Positions 17,381 through 46,543 of a stretch of 64,000 nt of DNA are shown here, in pieces. The position numbers and the translations under genes are program-made. The notes beneath the pieces are model-generated. The model was not told the DNA's origin and did no database searches. It saw only the letters and a list, made by a program, of their open reading frames with translations. Positions within the stretch are counted from its first letter, which is position 1. Each line of letters begins with the position of its first letter. The DNA comes from Patescibacteria group bacterium (GTDB lineage: Bacteria; Patescibacteriota; Patescibacteriia; UBA9934). Location of the stretch: NCBI GenBank assembly GCA_038064675.1, contig JBBTSM010000002.1, positions 145,852 through 209,851 of the forward strand. The letters run 5' to 3'.

Positions 17381-17417
17381 AAAATGCATTCCTACCCGTT
17401 CCACCACGTCCCGCTAT
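17381..17417. repeat. Direct repeat (copy 2) flanking the HAD cassette.
   Basis: 'aaaatgcattcctacccgttccaccacgtcccgctatgaaaaaa' is followed by the hairpin atctcagc-tcac-gctgaggtt. Confidence 0.5.
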
Positions 17418-28483: not shown

Positions 28484-28882
28484 GGGCTTGACGGGTTTCG
28501 ATACTCTTCGGATCCTCACAAATCACGCCGGAAGGGCACCATATTCCGTAATCCCGTGGTGCAACGAGATACTTGCAAACGCATTCTCAAAGGTGAAGAG
28601 CATGATCGCTTCGGCGTTCAGCGTTCCTTCATTCTCATTGGTTACCGCCTAAGGGCCGCAACCCATCCACTTCGCAATGCCTCATAGCGGATGTTGGGTG
28701 CAATATTATGAGACTATAGGCGTTCTCTTGTTCGCTCAGAGAACGTAACCCGTTGCAGCGAAATCGTGTCGATGATTCTTGTTCCGTCTTATCATCGCCC
28801 CGTATCCGACGGAACTGCGCGTGGAACAAATTTGTTTGGTGAGGTGGGGTAGACGAGGGTTCAACTCCCTCCAGGTCCACCA
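28484..28882 (+). ncRNA. ssrA: tmRNA (SsrA).
   Basis: The 5' end 'GGGCTTGACGGGTTTCGAT' pairs with the 3' 'CAGGTCC-A-CCA'. The 3' tRNA-like T-arm 'GAGGGTTCAACTCCCTC' ends in CCA at 28882. A -10-like 'tagtat' lies just upstream. Confidence 0.75.
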
Positions 28883-29614: not shown

Positions 29615-30676
29615 ATGACCACACGCAAAACCGACGCAGTCTCTGGGGTGAAATCGATCGCAATCTCGAGCGGAACCATGTTTCGCGTGTTGATTATTGC
29701 CGCGGTTGCAACGTTTTTGTACATGATTCGCGATGTTGTCGCGATGACGCTCGTTGCAGCATTTCTTGCGGCGCTTATCGATCCATTCGCGGACATTTTT
29801 ACCCGTTGGAAGATTCCTCGCGCGCTGGCGGTGCTCGTGGTGTATCTTCTTGGATTCTCGTTTTTCGTTCTTGTAGTGTTTCTCATCGTCCCACCGCTCC
29901 TCACAGAGTTGAGTGAGCTCGCCACTGCGCTTTCACCATTCATTGCTGGTGCAAATGGATGGCTTCAGGTGGATGCGTTCCTTGCGGGAACATGGAGTTC
30001 GAACGTTGGCGAGATTGTGTCGTCCATTCGTGATAGCGGTGTTGCTGGTGCGCTTCCAAAGATCGCTGCGTTTGGATCGTCTGCTTTTGATGTTGCGCTG
30101 AGCGTTGGTGTGGTGTTGATCCTCGCATTTTATTTTATCGTGGAGAAGAACGAGATGATTCGTGGCATTGGTATTGTTGCACCGCCAGAATATCAGCCGT
30201 TTGTGATGCATATTGCATTGAAGGCTCGTGAACAGATGGGCGTGTGGCTTCGTGGCCAGCTTGCGCTGATGGGTTCGATCTTCGTTCTTATTTACGGTGC
30301 GCTTTCTATTCTTGGCATTCCGTATGCGTTGGTTCTTGCACTTTTCGCTGGCTTGCTTGAGATTATTCCGTTCGTTGGCCCGATGGTATCGGCAATCCCT
30401 GCAATTGTTCTTGCGCTTGCCGTGTCGCCGGTGCACGCATTGCTGACGGCGTTCGCGTATCTCGTCATTCAACAGATTGAGGGAAACATCCTCGTGCCAA
30501 AAATCATGCAGAAAGTTGCGGGCATCAACCCTATTGTGAGCGTGCTTGCGGTGTTGATTGGTTGGCGTGTGGGCGGTATTGTTGGTGCTGTTCTTTCCAT
30601 CCCACTTGCAATGGCGATTCTCGTCTTTATGGACGACGTATTTAAACATAAAGAGACTGCTAAAGATGTTTTATGA
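29615..30676 (+). CDS. AI-2E family transporter (PerM/UPF0118).
   Basis: Eight transmembrane segments are predicted. 'AFAYLVIQQIEGNILVPKIMQK' is the family signature. Confidence 0.85.
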   Translation: MTTRKTDAVSGVKSIAISSGTMFRVLIIAAVATFLYMIRDVVAMTLVAAFLAALIDPFADIFTRWKIPRALAVLVVYLLGFSFFVLVVFLIVPPLLTELSELATALSPFIAGANGWLQVDAFLAGTWSSNVGEIVSSIRDSGVAGALPKIAAFGSSAFDVALSVGVVLILAFYFIVEKNEMIRGIGIVAPPEYQPFVMHIALKAREQMGVWLRGQLALMGSIFVLIYGALSILGIPYALVLALFAGLLEIIPFVGPMVSAIPAIVLALAVSPVHALLTAFAYLVIQQIEGNILVPKIMQKVAGINPIVSVLAVLIGWRVGGIVGAVLSIPLAMAILVFMDDVFKHKETAKDVL

Positions 30677-31074
30677 ACGACGAACTTCCGTCACAGCGCA
30701 ATTGGTTCCCGGTGATTGTTGCAGGATTAACGATTGTTCTCGCAATCGCGTTTTATGCAAAATTTCGTCCAGGGGATTTTGCAGCGCTCGTGCAGGGCGG
30801 GGGAGACGATCAGCCGGCCACAACTTCTGTGGTGACTGAAGACGGATACAGAACTGCGGTGGCAGCGATTTTCGCTGCATATGACAACAATCAGAATCCA
30901 ACCGAGGCATACAACGCGTTAATTGCATTGCATGTGCCGGCGTCGATGCAGCAGTTTCATATTGATTGCATCATCGCACTTGGCAAGCTTATGGATGGAA
31001 ATTCCACGAACACCGACGACGCGATGGCGCGATTCAATGCGCTTCATGCGCAGTACTCTTGGTTTACCCTGTGA
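30673..31074 (+). CDS. Membrane-anchored hypothetical protein.
   Basis: An N-terminal TM segment followed by a soluble domain. Its stop overlaps the next gene's GTG start. Confidence 0.4.
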   Translation: MNDELPSQRNWFPVIVAGLTIVLAIAFYAKFRPGDFAALVQGGGDDQPATTSVVTEDGYRTAVAAIFAAYDNNQNPTEAYNALIALHVPASMQQFHIDCIIALGKLMDGNSTNTDDAMARFNALHAQYSWFTL

Positions 31075-31835
31075 TTCTCGTCCATCGCATCACGCCATTC
31101 GGCATCGCGCTCGTAAGTATTGCAGCGTTTGCATCGCTGATTTATTCCCCGTTCTTTGGGATGAAAGTGCTTATTCCTGCTGCGGCGATGCTCGTCTTTG
31201 CGTTTTCGCGTCTGCTCTTGTGGGAATTCCGCCGACCTGCATTTTGGGTATTCCTCGGTACGCCGATGTTGTTGTGGTTTTCGTCGCTCATCTTTTTTTC
31301 GTTTCTTGAGGACCCCGTGAGTAAGTGGGTTATTGCAACAACCGTGACGTTTGGTGTGGCGTTGTATGCAGAGAACGTGTTTACGTTTTATCATTTGCCA
31401 AGTGCGTATCAAGCCTACGCGCTCGAGAATTTGTCGTTGGTGTTGTATGTGTTGAGCGCGTTCTTTTTTACAAGCGGTGCATTCGGTTCTCAGCTTTTTT
31501 TGCTCTTGCCGGTGTGGATTCCGATGCTTGTGGTGTTTGTCGCCGTATTGTTTGCGACGGTTTCTGTGTTCTGGGTGAGCAAGATTGGATTTGAGACTGG
31601 GCGACCGTATGCCATTGTTGGCGCGATACTCATGGCGGAGCTGTATAGCGTTCTCTCCACGTGGCCGACGAGTTTCGTAACGAATGCGGCAACGTTTGCT
31701 GTGCTGCTCTATACGTTCCTTGTGCTATCGCGTGCAAACGTACTGGAGCGTTTGACGAAGAAGATGGTGATACGAACGGTGGTATTCTCCAGCGTTCTTC
31801 TTGCGATTATTCTCGGTTCTGCCCGTTGGCTCTAA
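31071..31835 (+). CDS. Polytopic membrane protein of unknown function.
   Basis: The GTG at 31071 overlaps the upstream stop codon (sequence GTGA). About eight transmembrane segments are predicted. Confidence 0.45.
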   Translation: MILVHRITPFGIALVSIAAFASLIYSPFFGMKVLIPAAAMLVFAFSRLLLWEFRRPAFWVFLGTPMLLWFSSLIFFSFLEDPVSKWVIATTVTFGVALYAENVFTFYHLPSAYQAYALENLSLVLYVLSAFFFTSGAFGSQLFLLLPVWIPMLVVFVAVLFATVSVFWVSKIGFETGRPYAIVGAILMAELYSVLSTWPTSFVTNAATFAVLLYTFLVLSRANVLERLTKKMVIRTVVFSSVLLAIILGSARWL

Positions 31836-31844
31836 TTTTTTTCT

Positions 31845-32987
31845 ATGACGACATCACAAACTTCTTCAGGCCGGTGGTGGGGGATTGGCCGATCTCTGAT
31901 TCTTGCCGTTGTTGCCGGCGCCGGCGCAGGAGTTGTTGCTGCGGTGTGGACATCGCGATCGCTCGACGACTATGCCGCGAGTCTGCTTGCTGGCAGACAT
32001 CTGCCGCAAGTTTCAACACAGCAGCCAACGCCAATTCCTGGAACATATGAGGAGGCGTTGAGCCGTGTTCGAGAGAACGCGCGAACCGGCGTTGCTGCGG
32101 TGATGCCCGTTTCCACGGATAGTTTTGCGGCAAAGAGTTGGCTCAGCGACACATCTGCGTTGGGTTACGGCGCTATTGTGAGCGACGACGGCTGGGTTGC
32201 GGTTGATGCGAGCGTTCTTGATGACGTGAAAAATCCGCTCAAAGATATTGAAGTATGGATGAACGGGAAACGGTATGCGGTGCAGGCGGTTGTTCGCGAT
32301 TCACAGACGAGCGCGGCGATGCTTCATACAACGGCGACTGGACTGTCTCCGCTGGGCTTTGCATCCACGAATGGTGATCATTCTGGCGAGATGATGTTTG
32401 CTGTTGACGCGCTTGGGGGAGTGTTCCCGAATGCGGTCGCGCAAAGCGACGAAGAGATAATGTCTGGCGCGCAGCACGCAGAAACGTTTACGACAGACTG
32501 GGCACTGTCGGCGTCATCGCCATCGCTCAGCTCGCCGTTGTTGAATGCCGCAGGAGAGCTTGCGGGATTCGCTCGCGCTGGCGACGTTCATGTGTTGCCG
32601 CTTCATCAGGCGCTGCACGCGATTCGTTCGGTGGTGAAGACGGGTGCCAATACGGTTGCGATGTTCGGTGCATACAGCATCGATCTTGCGCATGCATACA
32701 ATATCGACAGCGATCTTCGTCAGAATCTTCGTGCTGGTGCGTTACTCTTTTCGCCAGATGCATCGGTGCACGCAACGGTGCGTGGCGGGCCTGCGGCAGA
32801 AGCCGGATTTGCGAGCAAAGATATTATTCTCGCTGTTGATGGAGAATCGGTAACAGATTCCACATCGCTCGCGGAAATTCTCGCGTTGTATGATCCTGGT
32901 GACGTTGCGCGATGTACGGTGTTGCGTGCTGGCCAAACAATGACGATTTCCGTGACGCTCGGCGATACATCGACCCTGGTATACTAA
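31845..32987 (+). CDS. HtrA/DegP-like protein with a C-terminal PDZ domain. The trypsin-fold catalytic His and Ser appear to be substituted.
   Basis: A TM anchor. 'SLSSPLLNAAGELAGF' aligns with GNSGGPLLN with the catalytic Ser replaced, and 'VAVDASVL' aligns with TNNHV. The PDZ domain includes '...ILAVDGESVTDSTSLAEIL...'. Confidence 0.5.
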   Translation: MTTSQTSSGRWWGIGRSLILAVVAGAGAGVVAAVWTSRSLDDYAASLLAGRHLPQVSTQQPTPIPGTYEEALSRVRENARTGVAAVMPVSTDSFAAKSWLSDTSALGYGAIVSDDGWVAVDASVLDDVKNPLKDIEVWMNGKRYAVQAVVRDSQTSAAMLHTTATGLSPLGFASTNGDHSGEMMFAVDALGGVFPNAVAQSDEEIMSGAQHAETFTTDWALSASSPSLSSPLLNAAGELAGFARAGDVHVLPLHQALHAIRSVVKTGANTVAMFGAYSIDLAHAYNIDSDLRQNLRAGALLFSPDASVHATVRGGPAAEAGFASKDIILAVDGESVTDSTSLAEILALYDPGDVARCTVLRAGQTMTISVTLGDTSTLVY

Positions 32988-32991
32988 TCAT

Positions 32992-33636
32992 ATGGCCTAT
33001 CGATACGCGCAGCTTTCCCCATTGTTAAGCGGATGGGTAACCATTCTTCTTTCGGGTGTCATTGGTATGGCGCTCGCCGTTGGGTTGTCGTTTTTACGTC
33101 CGTTGGAATACAGCGCAACGACGCAGATTCTTATTACCCAAGAGCTTGGTGCAGTCGATGCGTATACCGCAAGTCGCTCTGCGGAACGCATTGCTGATGG
33201 ATTGGCGAGCGCGGTGTACTACTCAACGTTCTTCGACAAAGTGATGGCATCGGGTTACGACATTGATCCAACGTATTTTTCTGACGACGCCATCACGCTT
33301 CGGGATCAGTGGGAAAAAACCGTTACCGCAGAAGTATCGCGCAGCAGTGGGTCGCTTTCGATTACAGCGTATCATCCGGATGTTCAGCAGGCAGAACAAA
33401 TTGCCCAGGCTGTTGCATACGTGTTGACCACGGAAGGCTGGACGTACACGTCTGGTGGAAATATTACCGTTCAAGTTGTCGATGAGCCGTTGAATTCGCG
33501 ATATCCCGTTCGTCCAAACCTTTTGATTAATGGATTCTCTGGCCTCGCACTTGGCCTTCTTGGCGGAGCGGGATACCTCTTGATTGCTGCAGAACGCACA
33601 CGTCGCCGCCACCAGTTTATGCATGATGAGGATTAG
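32992..33636 (+). CDS. Wzz/chain-length-determinant-like membrane protein.
   Basis: N- and C-terminal transmembrane segments flank a periplasmic domain. The C-terminus 'GLALGLLGGAGYLLIAAERTRRR' is typical of Wzz-like proteins. Confidence 0.5.
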   Translation: MAYRYAQLSPLLSGWVTILLSGVIGMALAVGLSFLRPLEYSATTQILITQELGAVDAYTASRSAERIADGLASAVYYSTFFDKVMASGYDIDPTYFSDDAITLRDQWEKTVTAEVSRSSGSLSITAYHPDVQQAEQIAQAVAYVLTTEGWTYTSGGNITVQVVDEPLNSRYPVRPNLLINGFSGLALGLLGGAGYLLIAAERTRRRHQFMHDED

Positions 33637-34013
33637 TTGAACCGACCGAGCGTAATGAGCGATTCAACGGGTGGCGCCGAGGGAGGTCCCCGTACGGAGC
33701 GCAACGAGCACAGAGTGCTGATGATAGTTACCGCAAACGTTCATGTGCGAGCTGAGCACCGTAACGGGGTCCGAGGCGACAGGACCCGTTGATGAGCGAG
33801 AGAAGCGATTGTGAAGAGCGGTTATCCCCGTTCATTGTTGATAGATTCTTGACGCTTGCGTCTGCTTTTGGTTCCCTTTGCACACGAAAACCCCTTGAGG
33901 GGACCCTACGGAACGGTTGTGACGCCTCCTCCTCGTTGCAACCCGTCACCATAGGGTCTCCTAAACGGGTTTTTTGTTTTGGCGCATTTCCTTGTTTATT
34001 GTCGCCTAATATT

Positions 34014-34042
34014 TGACTTTTTGGCCATTTTTTGGTATGATA
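34014..34042 (+). promoter_or_regulatory. Consensus-like sigma70 promoter (TTGACT-N17-TATGAT) that would give a ~215-nt 5' UTR for the gene at 34259.
   Basis: 'ttgactttttggccattttttggtatgat'. Confidence 0.4.
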
Positions 34043-34258
34043 GTCTGTCCTTGAATAAAGGATTCCATAGGGAAATCGGCAGGGAATTGAGGTGAGTAGA
34101 GCTTTCCCATTTGAGATCAAATAGGAAGTTCTAGCGCTCTCCAGTAGTTTGGTGTCCTGGGTGTTCCCTCCAACACTCGGTCGACGCCAAACTTCTGGAG
34201 CGCGCGAAACGCCCAATTACGGCATTCGCCGCGCAGTCTCTGACCAAATCACCCTGGA

Positions 34259-35197
34259 GTGCCCATGTTCCGCAAGAGCCTTGTTTCCCTCGTTCTCGTC
34301 CTGATCGCGTCGTCGGCGTTTGCCGCCGACATCGACCCGGCCACGCTCGACGCGCTCGCGCGTCAGCAGGGCCAGATCCAGGATCTCCAGGCCGAGCGCG
34401 ATGCGCTCGCGGCCCAGTGTGCCAAGGAATGCAAGCCCGTCCCGGCCCCCAAGAAGGCCTCGACGAAGCCCACCGCCCCCAAGGCCGCCGCCGCGCCGAA
34501 GACGCCCGTGCCGACCGTCGATCCCCGGATCGCGGAGTTGGAGGAGGAGGTGCGCTTCCTCCGCGCGCAGCTCGAGTTGCCGCCGGCGCCGATCACCGTC
34601 GTGGTTGCTCCGCCGATCGTGAACGTTGCGGCTCCGATTGTGACGATCACCCCGGTGGTCGAGAGCCACACGGAGCACACCAACACCGTCGTGGTCGAGG
34701 GCACCCGAATCCAGGTCGGCCTCATCGGCGCCGGGGTGATGGCTCCTCCGCTCCCCGGGGACGACATCGTCCTCGTCGATCGCGAGAAGGTCTTCGCCCG
34801 CATCGAGCTCGACCTCGGCAATGACAACCAGGTCGGAATTGAGGGGTTCGGTGGCTACGGTTTTACCAAGGACTCCACCGAGGCCGGTGCGATGTTCGTC
34901 TACGCACGGAACCTTGGTTTCGACGTCGACTTCGTCGCCGGCGCCGGCGTGAACTACCTCTGCGAAGAGGCGTTCAGCGGTGGTTCGCTCTGCTCGGCGT
35001 CCCGGTTCGGCCCGCAGGGGCAGATCGGGTTCGACTTCCATGCGTTCGGTCCGATCAATGCCGGAATCTACGGCGGTGGCGGGTACGACATGGTCGACGC
35101 GAGTGACGCCGGCGTCGGTGGCGTGGGGTATGGCTTCCTCTCGGCCCGGTTCTTCTGGGGCGAGCTCGGCAAGGCCACCTCGTCCGCGCCCAAGTAG
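34259..35197 (+). CDS. High-GC secreted protein with a coiled-coil, a Pro/Ala/Lys linker and a Gly-rich C-terminal domain.
   Basis: Signal peptide MPMFRKSLVSLVLVLIASSAFA. The overlapping antisense ORF at 34217-35323 is treated as a GC artefact. Confidence 0.5.
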   Translation: MPMFRKSLVSLVLVLIASSAFAADIDPATLDALARQQGQIQDLQAERDALAAQCAKECKPVPAPKKASTKPTAPKAAAAPKTPVPTVDPRIAELEEEVRFLRAQLELPPAPITVVVAPPIVNVAAPIVTITPVVESHTEHTNTVVVEGTRIQVGLIGAGVMAPPLPGDDIVLVDREKVFARIELDLGNDNQVGIEGFGGYGFTKDSTEAGAMFVYARNLGFDVDFVAGAGVNYLCEEAFSGGSLCSASRFGPQGQIGFDFHAFGPINAGIYGGGGYDMVDASDAGVGGVGYGFLSARFFWGELGKATSSAPK

Positions 35198-35442
35198 TGA
35201 TCCTTCGGCCCTAGTAAGTCTCATGTCGAAGTGAGACCGACGGGCCAAGGCACGGTGACCCACGCACGGTTCGGCTGGGAGGGAAGAGGTGAAAACCTCG
35301 ACTCTCCCGGCCGTTCGCGACACTTATTGGAGTGAAAGGTTAAGATGGTTAAACGGTTAAGACGGTTATTCTGAGTAGGAATAACCGGGTTAACCGAGAT
35401 GGTAATCCATCGATTTATCGCCTTAACCGTTCCCTTCAATCA

Positions 35443-35626
35443 TTGACAAAACTCCAAATTCTTGCTATAGTACGTAGTCAAGATTTCACACCATTTCAAC
35501 ACCAGTTCTGTGCAAGCAGTGAAGCGATCCTTCACTTCTGCCACAGGCCTGGAGTACCAGGTGGCTCGTCTCATGAGAGCTGCCGGGAACCCCCTCGGCC
35601 TGTCACCACCCTCAGGAGTCTCATCA
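35443..35626 (+). promoter_or_regulatory. Promoter plus conserved ~150-nt leader (copy 1) with a TGn extended -10, a conserved hairpin and a conserved RBS.
   Basis: TTGACA(35443-35448)-N17-TGcTATAGT(35463-35471). The leader is shared with 36286-36434 and includes AGTCAAGATTTCACA, the hairpin GCAGTGAAGCGA..CTTCACTTCTGC, and CACCACCCTCAGGAG. Confidence 0.55.
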
Positions 35627-36189
35627 TGTTCGTGTTCGCTTTTCTCGCATGCTCGACCTACGGCTCTGCCGAGGAGATCGCGGCTCAACAAGTCTCGTCC
35701 GGTGCGGTCATCATGCCGACCTCCGCCGCCCCCGTGGCGTACGGACCCGAAGGAATGATGTACCTCTACTGCGCCGCCGCCGACGAAGGGTGCTACGGGA
35801 CCGCCGAGCTGAACCTGTGCGGGACGTCCCCCGACTTCCCGATCCAGTGGAAGCCCGCGCTCTGTGACGATGCCTTCGGCACCTTCACGGCGGACAGCGG
35901 CCAGATGGCCTTCGTCACTCAGATCCCGTACCCCTCGGCAGGTCGCGGCGACGCGGCCACCCCCGACGCGGTGAACGTGGCGTGGAACGAGGAAGATGGC
36001 ACTGACCTCGCGGAGGAGGGCCTGGACGACGGGTGGTTCAACCTCCCGACGACGAACGGCGTCCCCTACGTGCAGATGATCAGCGACTGTGGTCACTACC
36101 ACCCCAACATCGTGTGGGGCTGGGACGTGGATGGCGACGTCAGCCTTCCGGCGAACGTGGCCAGCTACGGCGAGGACTACTGCGGTTGA
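35627..36189 (+). CDS. High-GC secreted Cys-rich protein.
   Basis: Signal peptide MFVFAFLACSTYGSA. The ATG sits 7 nt after the conserved AGGAG. Confidence 0.5.
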
Positions 36190-36285
36190 CGATACCGGCG
36201 AGTGATCTACGGATTCTCGCCACCACGGCTGACGCCCCGGACTTGTCTGGGGCGTTTCCATTTCCAGATATTTCTCTATTCTCCA

Positions 36286-36434
36286 TTGACATTTCTTCAA
36301 TTTTCTGCTATAGTACTCAGTCAAGATTTCACAGGAATAAAAGCCAGATTGTGCAAGCAGTGAAGCGAAAACTTCACTTCTGCCACAACCTGGATCTCGC
36401 AAAGACCAGGCCTCGACCACCCTCAGGAGCAACA
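36286..36434 (+). promoter_or_regulatory. Promoter plus conserved leader (copy 2).
   Basis: TTGACA(36286-36291)-N17-TGcTATAGT(36306-36314), then the same leader blocks as copy 1. Confidence 0.55.
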
Positions 36435-37226
36435 ATGTTTTCACTCGTTCTCTCCATCGCCGCTTGCGGCGTCGATCACAGTGCCGACACCGGTTCCGAA
36501 GTCACCGCGACTGGCGGCGTGTATGGCACGCTCCCCGGCTCCGGTTCCTCCGGTTCCGGCTCGACCGACACCGCCACCGAGGACACCGGCTCGGCCGACA
36601 GCGGCGAGACCGGCGAGACCGCGGACAGCTGCGATACCGCGGACACGGCCGACAGCGGCGAGACCGGCGATAGCGACTGCACCCCCGTCACCTGGTACCG
36701 CGATGCGGACGAGGACGGGTACGGCAGTTCGACGTGGACGAGCGCGTGCGACCAGCCGACGGGCTACGTGAGCAACGATGATGACCTCGACGACAGCCTT
36801 GCGGTGGTTGGGAGCAGCCCGACCCACGTGCGGATCTGCGGCACGGTCGACATCGGCTACGAGTTCAGCTTCTGGTGGGACGACACGGAGATGTCCGAGT
36901 CCAACACCTGGCTGAGCACGACGGTCTCCTTCACCACGGCCGCGTGCGAAGACGTCGCCGACTTCCGCCCCACCCACCTGTTCGCCCTCAACGGTTACTA
37001 CAAGGGCGGCGGGAGCGAGGACGAGTGGCTCGTGGGCGCGGGGAACAACTCGCACATCACCGACGTGTACGTCATGTTCGATGACGGCTCGTTCGACGAG
37101 TACACTGTGGACTCCACTGGCACCCACACCACGATCGGCTACGCCTACTTCGTGGACAACGGTGTCGGCGGTGGCAACCTGTACTTCGAGGCCGAGCCCG
37201 ACTTCGAGGGGGAGAACAGCTACTAG
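36435..37226 (+). CDS. High-GC lipoprotein with one MopE-like Cys/Asp metal-binding repeat.
   Basis: Lipobox 'LVLSIAACG', an acidic S/G/T/D linker, and 'CTPVTWYRDADEDGYGSSTWTSACDQPTGYVSNDDDLDD'. Confidence 0.55.
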   Translation: MFSLVLSIAACGVDHSADTGSEVTATGGVYGTLPGSGSSGSGSTDTATEDTGSADSGETGETADSCDTADTADSGETGDSDCTPVTWYRDADEDGYGSSTWTSACDQPTGYVSNDDDLDDSLAVVGSSPTHVRICGTVDIGYEFSFWWDDTEMSESNTWLSTTVSFTTAACEDVADFRPTHLFALNGYYKGGGSEDEWLVGAGNNSHITDVYVMFDDGSFDEYTVDSTGTHTTIGYAYFVDNGVGGGNLYFEAEPDFEGENSY

Positions 37227-37331
37227 TTCGGTTCCGCCACGTGACGGTGACTCACGCAACGAGCGGCCTCGGCCTCTTCCTTCCCTACGCGGGTTGGTCG
37301 AGCGTCCGAGGTCGTTTGCATTTGAGAACAC

Positions 37332-37442
37332 TTTTATTTTGGCCATTTTCGGCTTGCGTCATCGCAAACTCGCTCTACGTACCGAGAAGTACGCCTCGCG
37401 AGCTTTGCTCGACGCGCACCGAAACTGACCGAAAATAAAACC
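37332..37442. repeat. Palindromic MITE-like repeat (copy D) with terminal inverted repeats, inserted inside the high-GC segment.
   Basis: The termini are 'ttttattttggccattttcgg' and 'gaccgaaaataaaacc'. The core is 'ctacgtaccgagaagtacgcc'. Confidence 0.6.
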
Positions 37443-37627
37443 GTCCTCATCCGTTGTGTATTTTCCCCAAAGTTTTCTTTACTTTTACGTGCTTTTGGAC
37501 TATTATTTTTTGTCCCCTCAATGAGTGAGTGGCGCATTGCCACAACGCCCATGTGTGGGCACGACACCTTCAAATTTGAACCCTCACTGACTGACATTCA
37601 CGCTCACCGATCCCAGGAGATCACCTC

Positions 37628-39760
37628 ATGAATCGTTTCAGCTTCCGTTCCCTCGTCGCCCCGATCCTCACGATCGTCGGCGACAGCCTTCCTTCCATCC
37701 CCACCGTCGCTGTTTCTGGCGTTCTCGCCCTCGTGCTCACTGGCTGCAATCTGCCCTCGGGCGACTGCACGAAGTCGAGTGATGGCTTCTTCGGAACAGC
37801 CACGATCGTGCTCGACTGCGGCAAGGCCGATACTGGCAACACGGTGGTGGATTCCGGAGACACCGGCGACTCGGTTCCAGACTCGAACGCCGAGACCGGT
37901 GAAACGGATTCGGGTGAGATCGATGAGACCAATTCGGACACAGACACCGCTGCTCAGCCCACCGATGCGGACGGCGACGGTTTCAACACCGACGACGATT
38001 GCAACGACCACGACACGGCGATCAATCCGGATGCCACGGAGATCTGCGACGGCGTGGACAACAACTGTGACGACGTCATCGACACCGATGCGGCGGACCA
38101 GACCACGTACTACGCGGACACGGACAGCGACGGCTACGGCGACGCGACGGTGATCGTGGACGACTGTTCGGCTCCCGCCGGGTACGTCGAAGACGACACC
38201 GACTGCGACGACGCGGATGCCACCATCCATCCGTACGCGGACGAGGACTGCACGGCGATGGAAGATCTCAACTGCGACGGCTCGTTCGGCTACGCGGATG
38301 CCGACGGTGACTTGGTTCCCGCGTGCGAGGACTGCGACGACACCAACGCAAACGCCTACCCCGGTAACACGGAAGTGTGCGACGGGGTGGACAACGATTG
38401 CGAAGACACCGTCGACGAAGACGCCGCGGACGAGCTCACTTGGTACGAGGATCTCGATGGAGACACGTACGGCGATTCGGATTCCACCACCTTCGCCTGC
38501 GACGAGCCCATTGGCTACGTGGCCGACTCCGCCGACTGCGACGACGCCGCCGCCACCGTCAACCCGGGAGCCGCAGAGGTCTGCAACGACGTGGACGACG
38601 ACTGCGACGGCGGTACGGACGAGGACCTCGCGGTCACCGTCTACTACACCGACGCGGACGGCGATGGGTACGGGGCGGGCAGCGGGTCCTCCGAGTGCGC
38701 CGATCCCGGCGCCGGCTACAGCACGGTCAACACCGACTGCGACGACACCAACGGGGCCATCAACCCCGCGGCGGTGGAGACGTGCGACGGCGAAGACAAC
38801 GACTGTGAAGGCACCGTCGATGAAGGCGCCGTGGATGCGCTCACCTGGTTCGCGGACGGCGACAACGATGGCCACGGCAACGCTGCCATCAGCGTCTTGT
38901 CCTGCAGTGAGCCTTCCGGCTACACCGCGGACGACACCGACTGCGATGACACGGACAACGATGTCTACCCGGGCGATGCCGAGTGGTGCGATGGCAAGGA
39001 CAACGACTGCGACGGCGTCATCGATATCAACGACGGCGACGGCGACGGCGTCGATGCCTGTAGCGGGGACTGCGACGACGGCGACGCCGCCGAATTCCCC
39101 GGGAACCCCGAAGTTTGCGACGGCCTCGACAACGACTGCGACGGCGGCGTGGATGACGGTCTGACCGGAACCTACTACCGCGACAGCGACGGCGACACGT
39201 ACGGCGACCCGTCGGTGTCCACCACCGCGTGCAGCGCTCCGAGCGGGTACGTGTCCAACAACACCGACTGCGACGACGGCGACTCCGGAATCAACCCCGG
39301 GGGAACCGAAGTCGTGGGCAACGGCGTGGACGACGACTGCAGCGGAACGGAGCTGGTCTTCACGACCGACTTCGGGATGTCCACCGGCGTGTGCCGTCTC
39401 GACGGCGCATACACCTCGACGGGTGCCGCCGTCCGTCAGGCCGGCGGGTGCTACATCTGGGTAGAAGGGTACGGGAGCCTCACGGCTCCTGCGGTGTCCG
39501 TGGATATCGACGTCGCGGGCCTCACGGCTGGCGATGAGTACATCTTCTCCTGGGACGTCGGGAACGCGAGCGCGTCCACCACCACGTTCGTCGGCGCGTT
39601 CACCGGCTCGTCCATCGAGTCGCTGTCCCTCGGGACGGGAACCTCCGGCGTGCTGGAGGACATCGTGACTGTCGGGTCCACCACCGTGACCGCCAGCATC
39701 TGGCACACGGGGACGAACGACTACGACGGATACCTGACCGGGTTCACCGTCGAACGGTAG
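37628..39760 (+). CDS. High-GC secreted lipoprotein with ~8 tandem MopE-like repeats (putative metal-binding Cys/Asp repeats).
   Basis: Lipobox 'LALVLTGC'. The repeat unit is 'W/YYxDxDGDGYGxxxxxxxACxxPxGYVxxxxDCDDxxxxxxPGAxExCDGxDNDCDGxxDE'. The 805-aa antisense ORF is rejected as a GC artefact. Confidence 0.65.
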   Translation: MNRFSFRSLVAPILTIVGDSLPSIPTVAVSGVLALVLTGCNLPSGDCTKSSDGFFGTATIVLDCGKADTGNTVVDSGDTGDSVPDSNAETGETDSGEIDETNSDTDTAAQPTDADGDGFNTDDDCNDHDTAINPDATEICDGVDNNCDDVIDTDAADQTTYYADTDSDGYGDATVIVDDCSAPAGYVEDDTDCDDADATIHPYADEDCTAMEDLNCDGSFGYADADGDLVPACEDCDDTNANAYPGNTEVCDGVDNDCEDTVDEDAADELTWYEDLDGDTYGDSDSTTFACDEPIGYVADSADCDDAAATVNPGAAEVCNDVDDDCDGGTDEDLAVTVYYTDADGDGYGAGSGSSECADPGAGYSTVNTDCDDTNGAINPAAVETCDGEDNDCEGTVDEGAVDALTWFADGDNDGHGNAAISVLSCSEPSGYTADDTDCDDTDNDVYPGDAEWCDGKDNDCDGVIDINDGDGDGVDACSGDCDDGDAAEFPGNPEVCDGLDNDCDGGVDDGLTGTYYRDSDGDTYGDPSVSTTACSAPSGYVSNNTDCDDGDSGINPGGTEVVGNGVDDDCSGTELVFTTDFGMSTGVCRLDGAYTSTGAAVRQAGGCYIWVEGYGSLTAPAVSVDIDVAGLTAGDEYIFSWDVGNASASTTTFVGAFTGSSIESLSLGTGTSGVLEDIVTVGSTTVTASIWHTGTNDYDGYLTGFTVER

Positions 39761-39866
39761 TGAGGGTTCGTCACCTCGGGCCGGCGTACGCAGCGCCAGC
39801 CAACGAAGCTCTCGATCACCGCAAGGTGATCGGGGGCTTCTTCGTTTCCGATGGTATACTTTCTGT

Positions 39867-41399
39867 ATGATTCCCGATTTTCGTTCGTTGTATCGTGCGT
39901 CGGAAGAGCATGCGCGTCTTGCGTTCTTCGGATTTACTGCGCTTCTTGCACTTGGTTTTCTCGGGACGGTATTCTTTTCGTCTACGCTTGTTGTTGCGGC
40001 TGTCGTCGTGATCATTGGCATCGCCTTTACGTTTGCACGGCCGACGTGGACGCTGGCTGCCTTTGCCGTGTATCTCCCATTTGAGCCGTTTTTGTTGAAA
40101 TGGGTTCCGGACGATGTGTACGTGTTTGCACGCTATGGTTCCGAGCTTATCGTGTATTTGCTCCTTGCGGTTGTTGTGTGGCGAATGATCACCGGATCGA
40201 TTACGTTCAAGCGTACGCCGCTCGATGTTGCCTTTTGTGTCGTGATTTTTCTTGCACTCGTTTCTGTTGCGATTAACGCTCTTTCGCCGTGGGTTGCACT
40301 TCTTGGCCTTCGGCAAATTTTCCGATTCGTCTTACTGTTTTTTATCGTCGTGTACCTCTCGCCGTCAAAAGAACTTCTTCGAAAATTGCTGGTCGCAATG
40401 TTTGTTATCGTCACCATTCAGGCAGCGCTCGGATACGCTCAGCGTTTGCTTGGCGAGCCAATCGATACATTCCTTCTTCCGTCTGCACAGCGTACGCTTG
40501 GAAGCTTGCAGCTCACGTCCGGTACTACGCAATTTTGGGATCCTGGTCAGCGCGTGTTCGGTACGCTTGGCCGATATGATCAGTTAGGAACATTCATGGC
40601 GTTCTTCCTGATTCTTTTGGTAGCGTTTTTGTACGAACGCGCTCTTGCGAAACATGAGGAGCTTCCGGCGTGGTTCATCTTACTTTTTTCTGTTCCTGTT
40701 GTGGGATTAGCGTACTCGCGCTCTGCGTGGTTTGGTTTTGCGCTCGCATTCTTTTTTATCGCCCTTGTTGTAAAGCGCGACAAGCGTGTTCTTGCGGCAA
40801 CGCTCATTGGTGCATCGCTGGTTGGCGGATATCTTTCCATTTCTGGACTTGTCGTGAATCAACTTATTGATTCTTCAAGCCAAACATTGAGCGAGCGGTT
40901 TTTTGAGGCGTTTTCTTACGCGCGATGGCAGGGTGAATATTTCGGGCTCGGTCGTGTGTATTGGATGGCGCAAACCGTGTGGACTGTGGTGCCGTCGTCG
41001 CCGTTGTTCGGCCATGGCCCAGGAACATTCGGCGGTGGAGCGGTTGCGGCGCTTGGGAATACCGATGTGTATGACCGGCTCGGCTTGCCGTTTGGTGTGT
41101 ATGGAACGGAGGGCTACATCGACAACAATTGGTTTAGCATGTGGGGTGAACTTGGTACATTGGGGCTTGGCGCGTATCTCGTGATGTACGTGACGTTGTT
41201 CTTGGTGTGCTTACGGGTGTACCGCGAATCGAAGGATCCCGAGGTACGCGCGTTTGCCCTTGGTGTAGCCGGAGCAATGCTCGCGGTTGCGGTGAACGCA
41301 TTTCTTGCGACATTTTTGGAAGCGCGAACGCTCGCTCCGTATCTGTGGATTATGGGCGGCTCTGTGGTTGCGTTCGGAAAGAAGGAGGAGATTCTATGA
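39867..41399 (+). CDS. O-antigen ligase/polymerase (Wzy_C) family membrane protein.
   Basis: About twelve transmembrane segments are predicted, with a 'GLAYSRSAWFGFALAFF' Wzy_C-like region. Confidence 0.7.
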   Translation: MIPDFRSLYRASEEHARLAFFGFTALLALGFLGTVFFSSTLVVAAVVVIIGIAFTFARPTWTLAAFAVYLPFEPFLLKWVPDDVYVFARYGSELIVYLLLAVVVWRMITGSITFKRTPLDVAFCVVIFLALVSVAINALSPWVALLGLRQIFRFVLLFFIVVYLSPSKELLRKLLVAMFVIVTIQAALGYAQRLLGEPIDTFLLPSAQRTLGSLQLTSGTTQFWDPGQRVFGTLGRYDQLGTFMAFFLILLVAFLYERALAKHEELPAWFILLFSVPVVGLAYSRSAWFGFALAFFFIALVVKRDKRVLAATLIGASLVGGYLSISGLVVNQLIDSSSQTLSERFFEAFSYARWQGEYFGLGRVYWMAQTVWTVVPSSPLFGHGPGTFGGGAVAALGNTDVYDRLGLPFGVYGTEGYIDNNWFSMWGELGTLGLGAYLVMYVTLFLVCLRVYRESKDPEVRAFALGVAGAMLAVAVNAFLATFLEARTLAPYLWIMGGSVVAFGKKEEIL

Positions 41400-42625
41400 G
41401 AATTGTTCACGTCCATAAATATTTTCACTCTCGCGACGGCGCAAGTCGGTACGAGCGTGGGTTGATGCGTTTGCAGGAGGAGGCGGGGAACGCTGTTGCG
41501 CCATTTGCGATGCACGACGACCGAAATGAACCAACGCCGTGGAGCGAATATTTTGTTTCCAATCTTGAGACGAAGCGTGCGGTGATTGGTCTGAGTGCGT
41601 TCCGACAAGCCGCGAGAGCATTGTGGTCCAGGGAGGCGGAAAAGAAATTTGATCGCATGCTTGAGGTGTTTCGCCCCGACGTCATCCACGTTCACAACAT
41701 TTATACGCATCTTTCGCCGTCGGTGCTTGCGGTTGCCAAGCGAAGAAAAATTCCCGTCGTCATGACCGTGCACGACTATGCATTGATGAGTGCGAATTAT
41801 TCGTTGTGGGACGAGTCCAATATGCGGTCGATGGATCTGAACGACATCGGTATTCTTGCTACAGCGCGAACGAAATTCATGAAAGGATCGTTTCTCGCAA
41901 CACTCGTGCTTGAGATGATCTTGAAAATTCATCATGCATTCAAATGCTACGATTCTGCGATTTCGCACTACACGACGTATTCCAACTTTGTTCGCGATGT
42001 GATGGTGCGCTCGGGAATTCCCGCAGAGAAGATTGCTGTGCTCCATGCGTTCGCGGAGCCGTTGATGCATCCGGACATATCGATACCCGCAAAGGCGAAG
42101 GAACCTTTCGTGCTCTTCGCTGGCCGTCTCGAATCGTACAAGGGTGTTCATGTTCTCCTTGAGGCGTTGCGATATTTGCCATCGACGACGCGCATAAAGA
42201 TTGTGGGTGTGGGGCCTGATGAGGATCGATTGAAAATTATGATCGGGAAGGACCATCGAGTTGAATTCCTTGGTTTTGTTCCGGGGGCTGACCTCTGGAA
42301 GATGATGGCGCAGGCGGCTGTTGTGGTTGTTCCCTCCATTTGGAACGAGCCGTACGGGCTTGTCGCGCTTGAGGCGATGTGCCAAGGCACGTCGATTATT
42401 GTTGCGAAGAGCGGGGGACTGCCGGAGATTGTGGGGGAGTCGGAAGCAGGAATCGTGGTGTCGGCGGGCGATCCGAGGGCGTTGGCACGAGCCATAGAAC
42501 GAATACTTGATGATCCCGATCGTGCAAAGGTCATGGGAAGGGCGGCATATGAGCGTGCGCGGGCTATTGGGAATCCACAGGAGCACCTTGCAAAGATCAT
42601 GGAGATATACTCACGGTGTGGATAA
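41396..42625 (+). CDS. Family 4 glycosyltransferase (GT4).
   Basis: 'MRIVHVHKYF' at the N-terminus and a C-terminal 'VPSIWNEPYGLVALEAMCQGTSII' (EX7E). Confidence 0.85.
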   Translation: MRIVHVHKYFHSRDGASRYERGLMRLQEEAGNAVAPFAMHDDRNEPTPWSEYFVSNLETKRAVIGLSAFRQAARALWSREAEKKFDRMLEVFRPDVIHVHNIYTHLSPSVLAVAKRRKIPVVMTVHDYALMSANYSLWDESNMRSMDLNDIGILATARTKFMKGSFLATLVLEMILKIHHAFKCYDSAISHYTTYSNFVRDVMVRSGIPAEKIAVLHAFAEPLMHPDISIPAKAKEPFVLFAGRLESYKGVHVLLEALRYLPSTTRIKIVGVGPDEDRLKIMIGKDHRVEFLGFVPGADLWKMMAQAAVVVVPSIWNEPYGLVALEAMCQGTSIIVAKSGGLPEIVGESEAGIVVSAGDPRALARAIERILDDPDRAKVMGRAAYERARAIGNPQEHLAKIMEIYSRCG

Positions 42626-42733
42626 GACCAGAATCCTATTATAAATATCGCTAATACTAGCGATATTTTATTTGTATTTCCCGAAGGCGCTTCGTTGACC
42701 AAATGGCTAAAAACTGATAGGCTACTCGGTCTT

Positions 42734-43894
42734 ATGAAAATTGCCATGATTGGACAGAAAGGGATTCCGGCACAGTTTGGCGGCGTGGAAACCCACGTCG
42801 TCGAGCTTGCAACTCGCCTTGCGCGCCTTGGCCATACGGTCACGGTGTATGGCCGTACGTGGTACGTCCCAAAGCGGACGGACCGGGTAAACGGAATTCG
42901 CGTGGTTCGCACGCCAAGCATCCGCACGAAGCACCTTGATACTATTACGGCGTCGTTTTTTGCCGTGCTTCATGCAACGATGTTCGTCCGTCCAGACGTC
43001 TATCATTTTCACGGCGTTGGCCCCTCGCTCTTGGCGTGGATTCCTCGAATCTTTGCACCTCGGGCAACAGTGGTCACCACGTTCCACTCTATCGACCGTA
43101 CTCACGAAAAGTGGGGAGCGTTCTCTCGCCTTGCTCTTCGGCTTGGTGAACGCGCATCGTTTGCATTCGCCGACGAAACCATTGCTGTGAGCAAGACGCT
43201 CGCCAAGTATGGTGAGCGTGAATATGGCCGCCGTGCAACATATATTCCAAATGGCATCACGCCGGTTCACACTTCCGTCGAGCCATTGCTCTTGTCGCCA
43301 TTCGGTTTGGAACCGTTTCATTACGTCGCGATGATCGCACGTTTGGTTCCGCATAAGGGAGCGCACACACTCATCGCTGCATGGCAGATGGCACATAAAC
43401 GCCAGCCTGATGTCATGAAAGGCATCAAGCTTGCTATTGTTGGCGGAAGTGCGTTCACCGATGCATATGTCCGTAAACTTCATGCCATGGCATCGCATGA
43501 TGATTCTATTGTCTTCACTGGTTTTCAACGCGGCGATACATTGACTGCGTTGTTCTCTGGCGCGCGATTTATGGTGCATCCTTCCACTAGCGAGGGATTG
43601 CCAATCGCGGTGCTTGAAGAAATGAGCCACGGTAAAGCGGTTATCGCTGCAGATATTCCAGAAACCATGGAAGTTGTTGGCGAATACGGCGTGCCGTTCT
43701 CCCAGGGCGATATCACCACGCTCGCAGACTGCATCATCGATCTTGCAAAGGATCCAATGCAGGCTGCGGCAATCGGACATGCTGCGCGAACGTTCGTGGA
43801 AGACGAATATCATTGGGACGACATTGCGCAGGAAACTGCCGCGCTCTATCGTCGTCGTGCGATGGTTCGTCAAGGAGTATTCGCTGTTCGATAA
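42734..43894 (+). CDS. Family 4 glycosyltransferase (GT4).
   Basis: 'MKIAMIGQKGIPAQFGGVETHV...' at the N-terminus and a C-terminal 'HPSTSEGLPIAVLEEMSHGKAVIA'. Confidence 0.85.
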   Translation: MKIAMIGQKGIPAQFGGVETHVVELATRLARLGHTVTVYGRTWYVPKRTDRVNGIRVVRTPSIRTKHLDTITASFFAVLHATMFVRPDVYHFHGVGPSLLAWIPRIFAPRATVVTTFHSIDRTHEKWGAFSRLALRLGERASFAFADETIAVSKTLAKYGEREYGRRATYIPNGITPVHTSVEPLLLSPFGLEPFHYVAMIARLVPHKGAHTLIAAWQMAHKRQPDVMKGIKLAIVGGSAFTDAYVRKLHAMASHDDSIVFTGFQRGDTLTALFSGARFMVHPSTSEGLPIAVLEEMSHGKAVIAADIPETMEVVGEYGVPFSQGDITTLADCIIDLAKDPMQAAAIGHAARTFVEDEYHWDDIAQETAALYRRRAMVRQGVFAVR

Positions 43895-43902
43895 AAACAG
43901 GA

Positions 43903-44016
43903 CTTCCTCATTTGGCCGATTTTGGGCTTGCGCCATCGGAAACTTCTTCAACGTACCAAGAAGTACGTCTCGGAAGCTTTCCTCGCCGCGCACCCAAACT
44001 CGTCACAAATGAGAAA
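43903..44016. repeat. Palindromic MITE-like repeat (copy E) with terminal inverted repeats.
   Basis: The termini are 'cctcatttggccgattttggg' and 'cccaaactcgtcacaaatgag'. The core is 'caacgtaccaagaagtacgtc'. Confidence 0.6.
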
Positions 44017-46410: not shown

Positions 46411-46435
46411 CTTTTAGGACTTTCACATTTGAGGC

Positions 46436-46521
46436 TAGTTTCGATGAAGATCGAGGAAAGCTCGCGAGGCGTACTTATGTGTACGTTGAGCGAGTTTCCG
46501 ATGATCTGAGTCGAAAATAGA
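46436..46521. repeat. Palindromic MITE-like repeat (copy F).
   Basis: 'gctcgcgaggcgtacttatgtgtacgttgagcgagttt' with termini 'tttcgatgaagatc' and 'gatctgagtcgaaaa'. Confidence 0.55.
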
Positions 46522-46543
46522 CCAAATGGGGAAGTCATAAATT

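Follow-up and report, generated by a model that had tools for sequence, protein, structure and literature searches.

Loci for variable bacterial surface antigens, such as O-antigen and capsule loci and mosaic adhesin or pilin genes, occupy fixed positions beside envelope-polysaccharide genes and between conserved flanks. They are marked by unrelated alleles in the same slot, by mosaic genes, by discordance with the tree of the flanks and by atypical composition. The locus described here shares these traits. It lies in a 64,000-nt stretch (hereafter the window; all coordinates are positions within it) of contig JBBTSM010000002.1, assembly GCA_038064675.1, from a Patescibacteria group bacterium, and consists of a block of four plus-strand cassette genes, termed G1 to G4, at 34265-39760. 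It differs from the surface-antigen loci in three ways. What is replaced is one coding sequence or just a segment of it, lying between conserved promoter/leader elements and 3′ untranslated region (UTR) elements; the GC content at third codon positions (GC3) is raised by 0.3-0.55, with near-identical codon usage (r = 0.92-0.97) in four genomes whose backgrounds range from 0.30 to 0.72; and the host is a bacterium of the candidate phyla radiation (CPR). On balance, the block is probably a hypervariable locus for surface proteins, in which cassettes are exchanged among Uhrbacteria while the regulatory framework around them descends vertically.

Like classical genomic islands, this block shows a step in composition and an atypical codon usage, and its cargo consists of exported proteins. 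In contrast to such islands, the block is found at the same site in six relatives, is not accompanied by an integrase, a tRNA, att-like repeats or an identifiable donor, and has a stationary composition.

Individual components also have described counterparts. The MopE family (PF11617) is named after a copper-binding protein of Methylococcus. Eight repeats of this family are present in G4 (E 1e-67); proteins of other organisms join them to binding domains of the lectin, fibrinogen-like and other types. G1-G3, in contrast, are not Pfam members, and the repeats are not taken as a sign of metal binding by G4; they would most likely act as a Cys-stabilised stalk. The predicted eight-stranded barrel of G1 resembles OmpX, Ail, NspA, the N-terminal domain of OmpA, and OmpW, but G1 has no sequence-family match, its barrel lies behind an N-terminal coiled coil and Pro/Ala linker, and the last strand is extended by a tail of some 12 residues in place of a terminal aromatic residue. 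Like known structured 5′ leaders and cis-regulatory RNAs, the leaders of G2 and G3 have a covarying hairpin between the promoter and the ribosome-binding site (RBS), present at two co-located genes in seven genomes. It differs from them in having no Rfam match, no terminator or RBS-sequestering fold that could be found, a near-invariant stem and internal loops, and a narrow distribution.

Recombining surface loci and compositional islands are each already known. What is unusual here is the size and stationarity of the GC3 offset and its persistence in backgrounds with GC3 from 0.30 to 0.72, as well as the cassette-in-framework architecture, with its conserved promoters and a hairpin outside Rfam, and the prediction of an OmpX-like barrel in a CPR bacterium. 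No description of such a locus was found in the literature on Uhrbacteria, CPR, MopE or codon usage.

Composition and Gene Layout

The four genes of the block, and a fifth, separate gene (G0), are as follows.

34265-35197, plus strand: G1, 310 aa, GC3 0.87
35626-36189, plus strand: G2, 187 aa, GC3 0.86
36435-37226, plus strand: G3, 263 aa, GC3 0.90
37628-39760, plus strand: G4, 710 aa, GC3 0.85
26463-27029, minus strand: G0, 188-aa lipoprotein, GC3 0.93, 7 kb from the block and next to rplT
27166-27194, minus strand: promoter of G0, TTGACT-N17-TATTCT with TG, followed by a leader of about 130 nt

Calculated per kb, GC is 0.58-0.66 across 34001-40000 and about 0.50-0.55 on both sides. At 200-nt resolution it reaches 0.62-0.73 in the coding parts and is 0.42-0.49 in the intergenic gaps. 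The anomaly resides almost wholly at third codon positions, with GC at first and second positions (GC1 and GC2) near normal; GC3 is 0.85-0.90 in G1-G4, compared with 0.51-0.54 in the flanking genes for the PDZ, Wzz-like and Wzy_C proteins. Codon choice is shifted to C- and G-ending codons (CTC 0.68, ATC 0.95, TAC 0.97, AAG 1.00, CCC 0.50). The long opposite-strand open reading frames (ORFs) in the block are by-products of the high GC, and the wrong strand has been called in some public annotations of relatives. A first-pass annotation, made from the letters of the window, had described four co-oriented, high-GC genes for secreted proteins and lipoproteins, and had proposed sliding-window GC and codon-usage analyses as a check; these were run, and confirm both the description and the atypical nature of the block.

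A homologue of G0 occurs in one of the compared genomes (L022), with a GC3 of 0.89 and 33% aa identity, beside an rplT region that is 88% identical at the nt level. The presence of a gene of the same kind 7 kb from the block indicates a class of genes and not a single island.

Position in Related Genomes

The genomes and contigs used for comparison carry L-numbers. In six of them (L002, L008, L022, L023, L025 and L026), genes for PDZ, Wzz-like, G1, G2, G3, G4, Wzy_C and GT4 proteins occur in this order at the same site. Acquisition by this genome alone is not supported, since the four-gene block occupies the same site in six other Uhrbacteria. Judged from gene order and composition, the block is a positionally fixed, old locus, and not a recent import from Myxococcota or Actinomycetota.

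A further contig, L009 (CAYROW010000023.1), carries G2-G4 in the same order and both leader hairpins, without the left flank. It has been deposited as 'uncultured Gammaproteobacteria' and is almost certainly a mis-binned relative from the Uhrbacteria; the high GC of the block is probably behind the mis-binning. Such blocks pose a practical problem for binning, of which L009 is an example.

Three more distant genomes (L010, L011 and L012) have MopE or lipoprotein genes with the same codon usage in related contexts. The lipoprotein genes of L012 still adjoin Wzy_C and GT4. In L011 the right-hand synteny is kept (GT4, MATCAP, HTH_17, sigma-70, DUF5667 and a large protein), with flank proteins just 35-65% identical to those of the window. 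L010 is a high-GC Uhrbacteria genome in which genes of the cassette type are not outliers. The GC3 of the island genes and of their genomic backgrounds is given below.

Window, island 0.85-0.90; L002, 0.87-0.97; L008, 0.78-0.87; L022, L023 and L025, 0.82-0.95; background 0.48-0.57 for these five genomes and 0.49-0.57 for the window group
L026, island 0.63-0.79; background about 0.44
L012, island 0.75-0.85; background about 0.46
L011, island 0.65-0.84; background about 0.30
L010, island 0.82-0.87; background about 0.72

The proteins of the window have been deposited as Patescibacteria proteins from metagenome-assembled genomes (MAGs), and related contigs are titled Candidatus Uhrbacteria. A 12.5-kb contig of assembly GCA_964357295.1 is 100% identical to 30471-42953, spanning both junctions of the block. 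Logan contigs from two read sets are identical to the window over 39116-43941, which includes the right junction, and a contig from Hainich groundwater is 99.8% identical over 35027-36951. A check of both junctions for chimeric assembly had been called for, and the other assemblies and reads agree with the window, showing no chimera.

Exchange of Coding Sequences

Among the related loci, flank proteins are 83-98% identical, G1 proteins are 27-50% identical, and G3 proteins have only the N-terminus in common. The second slot is occupied by two unrelated allele families, whose only common parts are the lipobox and a few residues at the start; the window, L009 and L026 have type A, and L002, L008, L022 and L023 have type B. 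The window G2 is without similarity to the slot-2 gene of its closer relatives L002, L008, L022 and L023. Its closest match is in the more distant L026, at an identity of 67% (aa) and 73% (nt), although the L026 PDZ protein is only 48% identical, and most of the L026 flank DNA about 67% identical, to that of the window. The window G3 is closest to that of L022 (79%), though the flanks of L022 group with those of L023 and L025. Identities between G1 proteins are likewise discordant with the PDZ tree.

The pair L023 and L025 allows a comparison at short distance. Their flank proteins are 97-98% identical and their G1 proteins 68%, while synonymous third-position differences amount to 24.5% in the flanks and 28.6% in G1. 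Polarised changes between G and C make up 22 of 36 in G1, against 3 of 119 in the flanks. G1 of this pair is a mosaic, with an nt identity of 0.99 over about 180 nt (L023 3571-3750) and of 0.55-0.64 at the part encoding the barrel (3838-4190); in the intergenic region downstream of G1 the identity is again 0.94-0.98. Across the genomes, the intergenic pieces that hold promoters, leaders and 3′ UTRs are 76-89% identical, and the coding parts between them are sometimes unalignable.

Where a G2 allele of type B has been retained (L002, L022 and L023), its products are 83-85% identical, the same as the flank protein. Retained alleles diverge like the flank protein, which indicates that the hyper-divergence results from replacement and not from hypermutation. 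This flank-like rate, together with the blocky pattern of the divergence, rules out a general hypermutation of the cassettes. Programmed variation, be it by silent-cassette gene conversion, by invertible promoters or by diversity-generating retroelements (DGR), is not indicated: no repeat pair was found in 33600-40000 besides the MopE repeats. Apart from the paired leaders and a palindromic repeat element described below, no intergenic piece recurs in the window, in a search that covered these 64 kb only and did not extend to the coding sequences of the cassettes.

Codon Usage and Stationarity of the GC Content

Compared by their within-family codon fractions, cassettes of the window and of L010, L011 and L012 correlate with each other at r = 0.92-0.97. 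Correlation with the codon fractions of the cassettes' own host is 0.48 in the window and 0.00 in L011, and that with the background of the high-GC genome L010 is 0.87-0.90. Features common to the cassettes and the L010 background are CTC > CTG and CCC ≥ CCG; Myxococcus and Streptomyces prefer CTG. As the closest codon match is the background of a high-GC member of the Uhrbacteria (r = 0.89), any high-GC source would most likely lie within this same candidate phylum.

At four-fold degenerate sites, the window and L002 have diverged by 0.63-0.72 in the cassettes and by 0.71-0.77 in the flanks. The cassette sites show 25% G-to-C or C-to-G differences and 19% differences between the GC and AT classes; the corresponding values for the flanks are 9% and 38%. 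In a two-state model, the process acting on the flanks has an equilibrium GC of 0.56 (λT = 1.48), and for the cassettes the equilibrium is 0.885 (exp(-λT) = 0.05), meaning that their sites have been almost fully re-randomised around it. Decay from 100% GC under the flank process would leave a GC of 0.77 (bootstrap 0.73-0.80), and the values observed are 0.85 and 0.92. Because the four-fold GC is stationary and exceeds the expectation from decay, a single old import followed by passive amelioration is rejected, and this holds for vertical descent and for re-import of cassettes alike. A composition that is the decaying relic of an earlier state is likewise ruled out by the stationary four-fold GC of about 0.88. 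A six-taxon parsimony polarisation of four-fold sites was discarded, as it had 24 usable sites in G1 and is biased under one dominant state; the L023/L025 pair and the two-state analysis were used in its place.

In the window, rplT (ribosomal protein L20) has a GC3 of 0.60 and the gene for initiation factor 3 (IF3) of 0.55; in L011, ribosomal protein L31 has 0.30 and release factor 1 (RF1) 0.25. With GC3 just slightly raised in ribosomal protein and IF3 genes, ordinary expression-linked codon selection is insufficient, and it has been down-weighted as an explanation. The lower GC3 of cassettes in some low-GC hosts suggests import balanced by partial amelioration.

Search for a Donor

G1 has seven homologues besides itself among 5.8 billion proteins, and G3 has eight besides itself. 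For G2, seven clear homologues and one marginal match were found among 1.84 billion cluster representatives. None of the G1-G3 homologues bears a source name from another phylum, and those that could be traced to contigs all sit in this same locus. The repeats of G4 match more than 7,000 proteins from many phyla, including Patescibacteria, Uhrbacteria and Myxococcus, at about 45% identity and with no preferred lineage; with thousands of such matches, G4 is uninformative on a donor. Hallmarks of mobility were also sought, and near the block there is no integrase, no flanking direct repeat and no tRNA, the sole tRNA of the window being at 5175.

The first-pass annotation had named Myxococcota or Actinomycetota as donor. 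Such a donor is not identifiable from the homologues of G1-G3, and the G4 repeats point to no lineage. What stands of that proposal is that the genes are exported, have a foreign codon usage and have moved laterally; what is not supported is a distant high-GC phylum as the source.

Promoters, Leaders and Other RNA Elements

The non-coding features of the block, and one element just upstream of it, are listed here.

33843-33985, plus strand: conserved non-coding element of about 140 nt, between the Wzz-like gene and the G1 promoter
34013-34041, plus strand: G1 promoter, TTGACT-N17-TATGAT with TG extended -10, 10/12 consensus
34048-34264, plus strand: G1 5′ leader of about 217 nt, from a predicted transcription start
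35198-35330, plus strand: G1 3′ UTR, GC-rich and conserved, with the motif ACGGTGACyCACGCAACG, also in the G3 3′ UTR
35443-35471, plus strand: G2 promoter, TTGACA-N17-TATAGT with TG extended -10, 11/12 consensus
35500-35555, plus strand: G2 leader hairpin (covariance model R1), -24.4 kcal/mol, z -3.3
36286-36314, plus strand: G3 promoter, TTGACA-N17-TATAGT with TG extended -10, 11/12 consensus
36341-36396, plus strand: G3 leader hairpin (covariance model R1), -21.9 kcal/mol, z -3.9
37478-37506, plus strand: weak promoter-like site upstream of G4, TTTACT-N17-TATTAT, 9/12 consensus without TG, kept in L002
39805-39840, plus strand: terminator-like hairpin closing the block

The promoters of G2 and G3 are the top two sigma-70 consensus matches on both strands of the whole 64-kb window. 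That of G1 is near-consensus and is kept in L002, L008, L022, L023 and L025. The textbook AT-rich promoters reported earlier are therefore present at G2 and G3 and nearly so at G1, but G4 has a weak site only. Their motif had been written as TTGACA-N17-TGnTATAGT; the motif itself is correct, but the notation should be N14-TGn-TATAGT, that is, a 17-nt spacer.

A shared leader of about 150 nt had been described for G2 and G3, with a conserved hairpin and an identical RBS block. The hairpin and the block (ACCACCCTCAGGAG, present in both leaders) are found as described, but the similarity falls into separate blocks and is not a continuous 150 nt: 35441-35490 matches 36284-36333 at 82%, and the hairpin core 35509-35545 matches 36350-36387 at 92%. 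The hairpin follows the pattern CCAG.UUGUG..AG.AGUGAAG-loop-CUUCACU.CU..CACAA.CUGG. A covariance model search with R1 recovered 13 copies in seven genomes, each upstream of G2 or G3, which answers an earlier suggestion to look for further copies of the leader. Among these 13 copies, both sides have changed in 6 of 18 base pairs, G-U pairs are present and 97.4% of cells are paired. None of 500 shuffles reached the covariation score, and slid controls were 34-53% paired. The stem-proximal sequence and the internal loops are invariant, and a second covarying hairpin follows the first.

Judging by its G-U pairs and strand-specific scores, the hairpin is more likely to be an RNA structure than a DNA operator, and its invariant stem-proximal sequence and internal loops suggest a trans-acting partner, which may be a protein or an RNA. 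Neither a terminator nor an obvious RBS-sequestering alternative fold was found in the G2 and G3 leaders. Strong coordinated local control had been proposed for the block; the strong local promoters, and the structured leader common to G2 and G3, make coordinated local control of these two genes plausible as read from sequence. There is no leader match in Rfam, either at the gathering threshold for the whole window or at E ≤ 1 for 33600-37700.

A search of L010, L011 and L012 with R1 detected nothing. Scanning a genome collection for the leader pattern gave relatives from the Uhrbacteria only, plus one chance match (L006), and scanning metagenomes gave one contig of the same strain (99.8% identical), plus chance matches. 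As the hits were relatives, the same strain or chance matches, the leader motif is narrowly distributed. The leader of a MopE lipoprotein gene in L011 (6268-6345) has a long hairpin of similar outline (GAUUGUGG...AUGAAG / CUUCAU...), which R1 misses; its likeness to the leader hairpin is a visual impression.

The element at 33843-33985 is near-invariant in six genomes whose four-fold sites differ by about 46%. RNAalifold predicts a hairpin of about 90 nt with three compensatory pairs, an invariant apical loop (CCUCCUCCU) and a trailing U-run; the loop is anti-Shine-Dalgarno-like. A called 74-aa ORF on the minus strand (33728-33952) overlaps the element, and Rfam has no match to it. It is a candidate small RNA (sRNA) or an unusually long terminator hairpin. 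The G1 leader also contains a hairpin (34150-34189; -26.9 kcal/mol, z -1.8), which has a CCCUCC loop and is kept in L002 and L008. This loop is a second anti-Shine-Dalgarno-like motif, less than 350 nt from the CCUCCUCCU loop.

Motifs in the 3′ UTRs were observed at 35198-35330 and 37227-37330 of the window and at 5252-5375, 6370-6495 and 7535-7655 of L002. A pyrimidine tract (CTTCCTTCCC) is present 3′ of G3 and also 3′ of G2 in L002.

The Encoded Proteins

An ordinary signal peptide on G1, and lipobox-like signal peptides on G2, G3 and G4, can be read from the sequences. Neither Pfam nor NCBIfam has a family for G1, G2, G3 or G0.

The recognition of G1 as a secreted protein with coiled-coil and Pro/Ala-linker segments was correct, and a predicted β-barrel can now be added. 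Its signal peptide is followed by two coiled-coil helices and then by a Pro/Ala linker, and the C-terminal part is predicted to form a barrel of eight strands. In the AlphaFold2 model, based on an alignment of eight sequences, residues 147-298 form eight antiparallel strands of 12-17 residues each, with a predicted local distance difference test (pLDDT) score of 75-90. The top Foldseek matches were NspA, Ail, OmpX, the OmpA transmembrane domain, OmpW and OprF-N, with E values from 1e-6 (NspA) to 1e-4, a probability of 1.0 and target-normalised template modelling (TM) scores of 0.5-0.6. Outer-membrane barrels inserted by BAM have an aromatic β-signal at the C-terminus; the final strand of G1 ends in ...ARFFW and is followed by a 12-residue tail. 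G1 is thus predicted from its model to end in an OmpX/Ail-like eight-stranded β-barrel. In the general view, CPR bacteria have no outer membrane, and in a lineage regarded as single-membrane such a fold is unexpected.

G2 is a 187-aa, Cys-rich, lipoprotein-like protein of allele type A with a very short lipobox-like signal peptide. G3 has a lipobox, a disordered acidic linker of about 70 residues rich in Asp, Ser, Thr and Gly, one MopE-like half-repeat and, in the AlphaFold2 model, a C-terminal β-sandwich; a fold search gave no significant match in the PDB, only generic β-sandwiches. Its description as a lipoprotein with one MopE-like repeat holds in so far as the single repeat is similar to those of G4, its only similarity, but the repeat has no Pfam match. 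G4 has a lipobox, a linker, eight MopE repeats (PF11617, E 1e-67; score 224 bits, Pfam gathering cutoff 27) and, at the C-terminus, a distinct domain of some 130 aa that is missing from the L002 orthologue, in agreement with its earlier description as a 710-aa lipoprotein with about eight such repeats. The domains of G1-G4, and their position beside the genes for Wzz-like, Wzy_C and GT4 proteins, fit variable surface or adhesin-like proteins.

Other Features of the Window

A palindromic repeat resembling miniature inverted-repeat transposable elements (MITEs) and repetitive extragenic palindromic (REP) sequences lies between G3 and G4.

37335-37440, plus strand: MITE/REP-like palindromic repeat, matched core 37345-37426

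Further copies at 5068-5149 (minus strand), 43919-44000 (plus strand) and 46451-46504 (minus strand) bring the number of full copies in the window to four, and a partial copy is found at 449-474. The element is a palindrome of about 100 nt (-42 kcal/mol, z -6.6). In related genomes its sites vary: in L002 it lies inside the G2 leader, and in L008 and L022 between the candidate sRNA and the G1 promoter. The differing sites imply that the element has been mobile recently. It is short, palindromic, multi-copy, intergenic and variable in site, as MITE and REP-like elements are, and the insertion of a host MITE between genes 3 and 4, noted earlier, is supported by its multiple copies within the window.

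Outside the block, a low-GC region (0.36-0.47) extends from about 7000 to 17400. It includes a gene for a SIR2_2 protein (13606-14616) directly followed by one for a HerA/DUF87 ATPase (14600-16486), and a gene for a HATPase_c_3 protein (10623-12620). The SIR2-HerA pair looks like an anti-phage defence island, judging by the domains encoded. A transfer-messenger RNA (tmRNA) gene is present at 28484-28882 on the plus strand, with the tag ANAFSKVKSMIASAFSVPSFSLVTA. On the right, 45877-47668 (plus strand) encodes a sigma factor of the extracytoplasmic function (ECF) type and a DUF5667 protein, the synteny of which with the MopE locus is kept even in the distant L011.

Discussion

The exchange of cassettes within Uhrbacteria, inside a framework that is inherited vertically, can be pictured as follows. 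The locus is fixed between the Wzz-like gene and a Wzy_C/GT4 envelope-polysaccharide cluster, and would encode one secreted barrel protein and three lipoproteins with acidic linkers, MopE-type Cys/Asp repeats and variable β-rich ends. Each gene appears to have a near-consensus sigma-70 promoter to itself, followed by a 5′ leader that is long and structured, and the hairpin of G2 and G3, situated between the transcription start and the RBS, most likely serves to bind a shared factor, or acts on the stability or translation of the mRNA, and would thereby couple the two genes. The non-coding framework of promoters, leaders and 3′ UTRs is inherited together with the flanks, and recombination replaces whole coding cassettes, or segments of them, by alleles of other Uhrbacteria lineages. 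The GC3-rich, C-ending codon usage would then belong to the pool of cassettes and not to the resident genome, and the GC of the pool would be kept high by repeated allele replacement, by a recombination-linked GC bias, or by both. The source of this GC may be import from high-GC Uhrbacteria, recombination-linked GC bias or selection at synonymous sites.

Several points weigh against this reading. A closed pool residing in genomes of lower GC should drift downwards, and so needs an extra force or a high-GC reservoir; the cassettes of L010, a high-GC genome, are no closer to those of the window than the L010 flank genes are. Spacers located 100-200 nt from the cassettes, such as 35330-35440, are AT-rich and poorly conserved. 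Their closeness argues against a purely regional mutational or gene-conversion bias; a force that acts on coding sequence only would fit, as would recombination tracts that end at the conserved framework. That cassettes and flanks have diverged almost equally at synonymous sites would also fit strict vertical descent with a selected GC3. Finally, all of the compared genomes and contigs are MAGs or metagenome contigs.

This last alternative, in which the genes descend vertically, direct selection at synonymous sites holds GC3 at about 0.88 and exchange is a side issue, is unlikely, and it does account for several observations. Selection could be aimed at very high expression, at the stability or structure of the mRNA, or at accuracy in decoding repeats rich in Asp, Gly, Thr and Cys. 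The anomaly does not extend beyond coding sequence, is most marked at third positions and has a strand-specific preference for C-ending codons; the strongest consensus promoters of the window drive cassette genes; between L023 and L025, changes from GC to AT are suppressed and those from AT to GC are enriched per site relative to the flanks; and unconstrained spacers within the block remain AT-rich. It is opposed by the GC3 of the genes for L20 and IF3 in the window (0.60 and 0.55) and for L31 and RF1 in L011 (0.30 and 0.25), by the lower GC3 of cassettes in low-GC hosts (0.63-0.79 in L026, and 0.65 in one gene of L011), which fits partial amelioration, and by an approximately 16-fold per-site excess of changes between G and C at synonymous sites, from the L023/L025 counts, which fits replacement of segments and not selection by itself. 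A GC bias linked to recombination might instead act by itself, through a hotspot, biased mismatch repair or more effective selection, with no high-GC source. Recombination rate and gene GC are positively correlated in most bacterial species studied, and whether biased gene conversion or more effective selection is the cause is contested (PMC11879095). Exchange in the block is demonstrated, and the conserved framework could confine conversion tracts to the coding parts. A bias of this kind is nevertheless quite unlikely to suffice: the GC3 offset of +0.35 to +0.55 far exceeds the modest gene-level correlations (as assessed from PMC11879095 and general knowledge), biased conversion would be expected to act alike on both strands, but the coding strand has more C than G, and the rise in GC1 and GC2 is slight in proteins that tolerate many replacements.

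It is very unlikely that the block goes back to one ancient acquisition from a high-GC donor outside the CPR, such as a member of the Myxococcota, with vertical descent and slow amelioration ever since. The GC1, GC2 and GC3 of the cassettes do resemble those of a 65% GC genome, MopE repeats are also found in Myxococcus and other high-GC taxa, and the eight-stranded β-barrel predicted for G1 is typical of bacteria with two membranes. Against this, passive decay since the split of the window and L002 cannot leave a four-fold GC of 0.85-0.92 at sites that are stationary, the same codon usage is seen across backgrounds with GC3 from 0.30 to 0.72, no G1-G3 homologue is named from another phylum, the mosaic and discordant alleles point to ongoing exchange, and neither an integrase, an adjacent tRNA nor flanking direct repeats were seen. 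An assembly artefact, in which a contaminant was joined to a CPR scaffold, might be suspected from the sharp compositional step at both ends of the block and from the binning of L009 as Gammaproteobacteria. Its probability is negligible, given the identical junction sequence in independent assemblies and read sets, the same gene order in six other genomes, and the MITE copies of host type and host-like promoters inside the block.

A bolder proposal, and a doubtful one at this stage, is that the locus is a stable compositional compartment, with its GC3-rich usage at equilibrium across family-level divergence, a dedicated RNA hairpin and a G1 barrel possibly directed at host membranes. If true, the force specific to the cassettes would be a recombination-linked GC bias or selection on mRNA, effective even against a background GC3 of 0.30, and G1 would be an outer-membrane-type β-barrel used by a bacterium without an outer membrane.

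The exchange of cassettes within a conserved framework has consequences for how such loci are read. A compositional outlier is usually interpreted as a recent transfer, and the present block, which is old, fixed and stationary and for which that interpretation does not pass a quantitative test, calls for caution in identifying horizontal gene transfer in this way. It also offers a test case on whether GC in bacteria is set by selection, by a bias tied to recombination or by gene flow of the source-sink kind. Neither the leader hairpin nor the element with the CCUCCUCCU loop belongs to an Rfam family, and both may be new regulatory RNAs. The rapidly shuffled, strongly promoted lipoproteins and the predicted barrel protein are candidates for the host-contact interface of CPR bacteria, which has so far been little understood.

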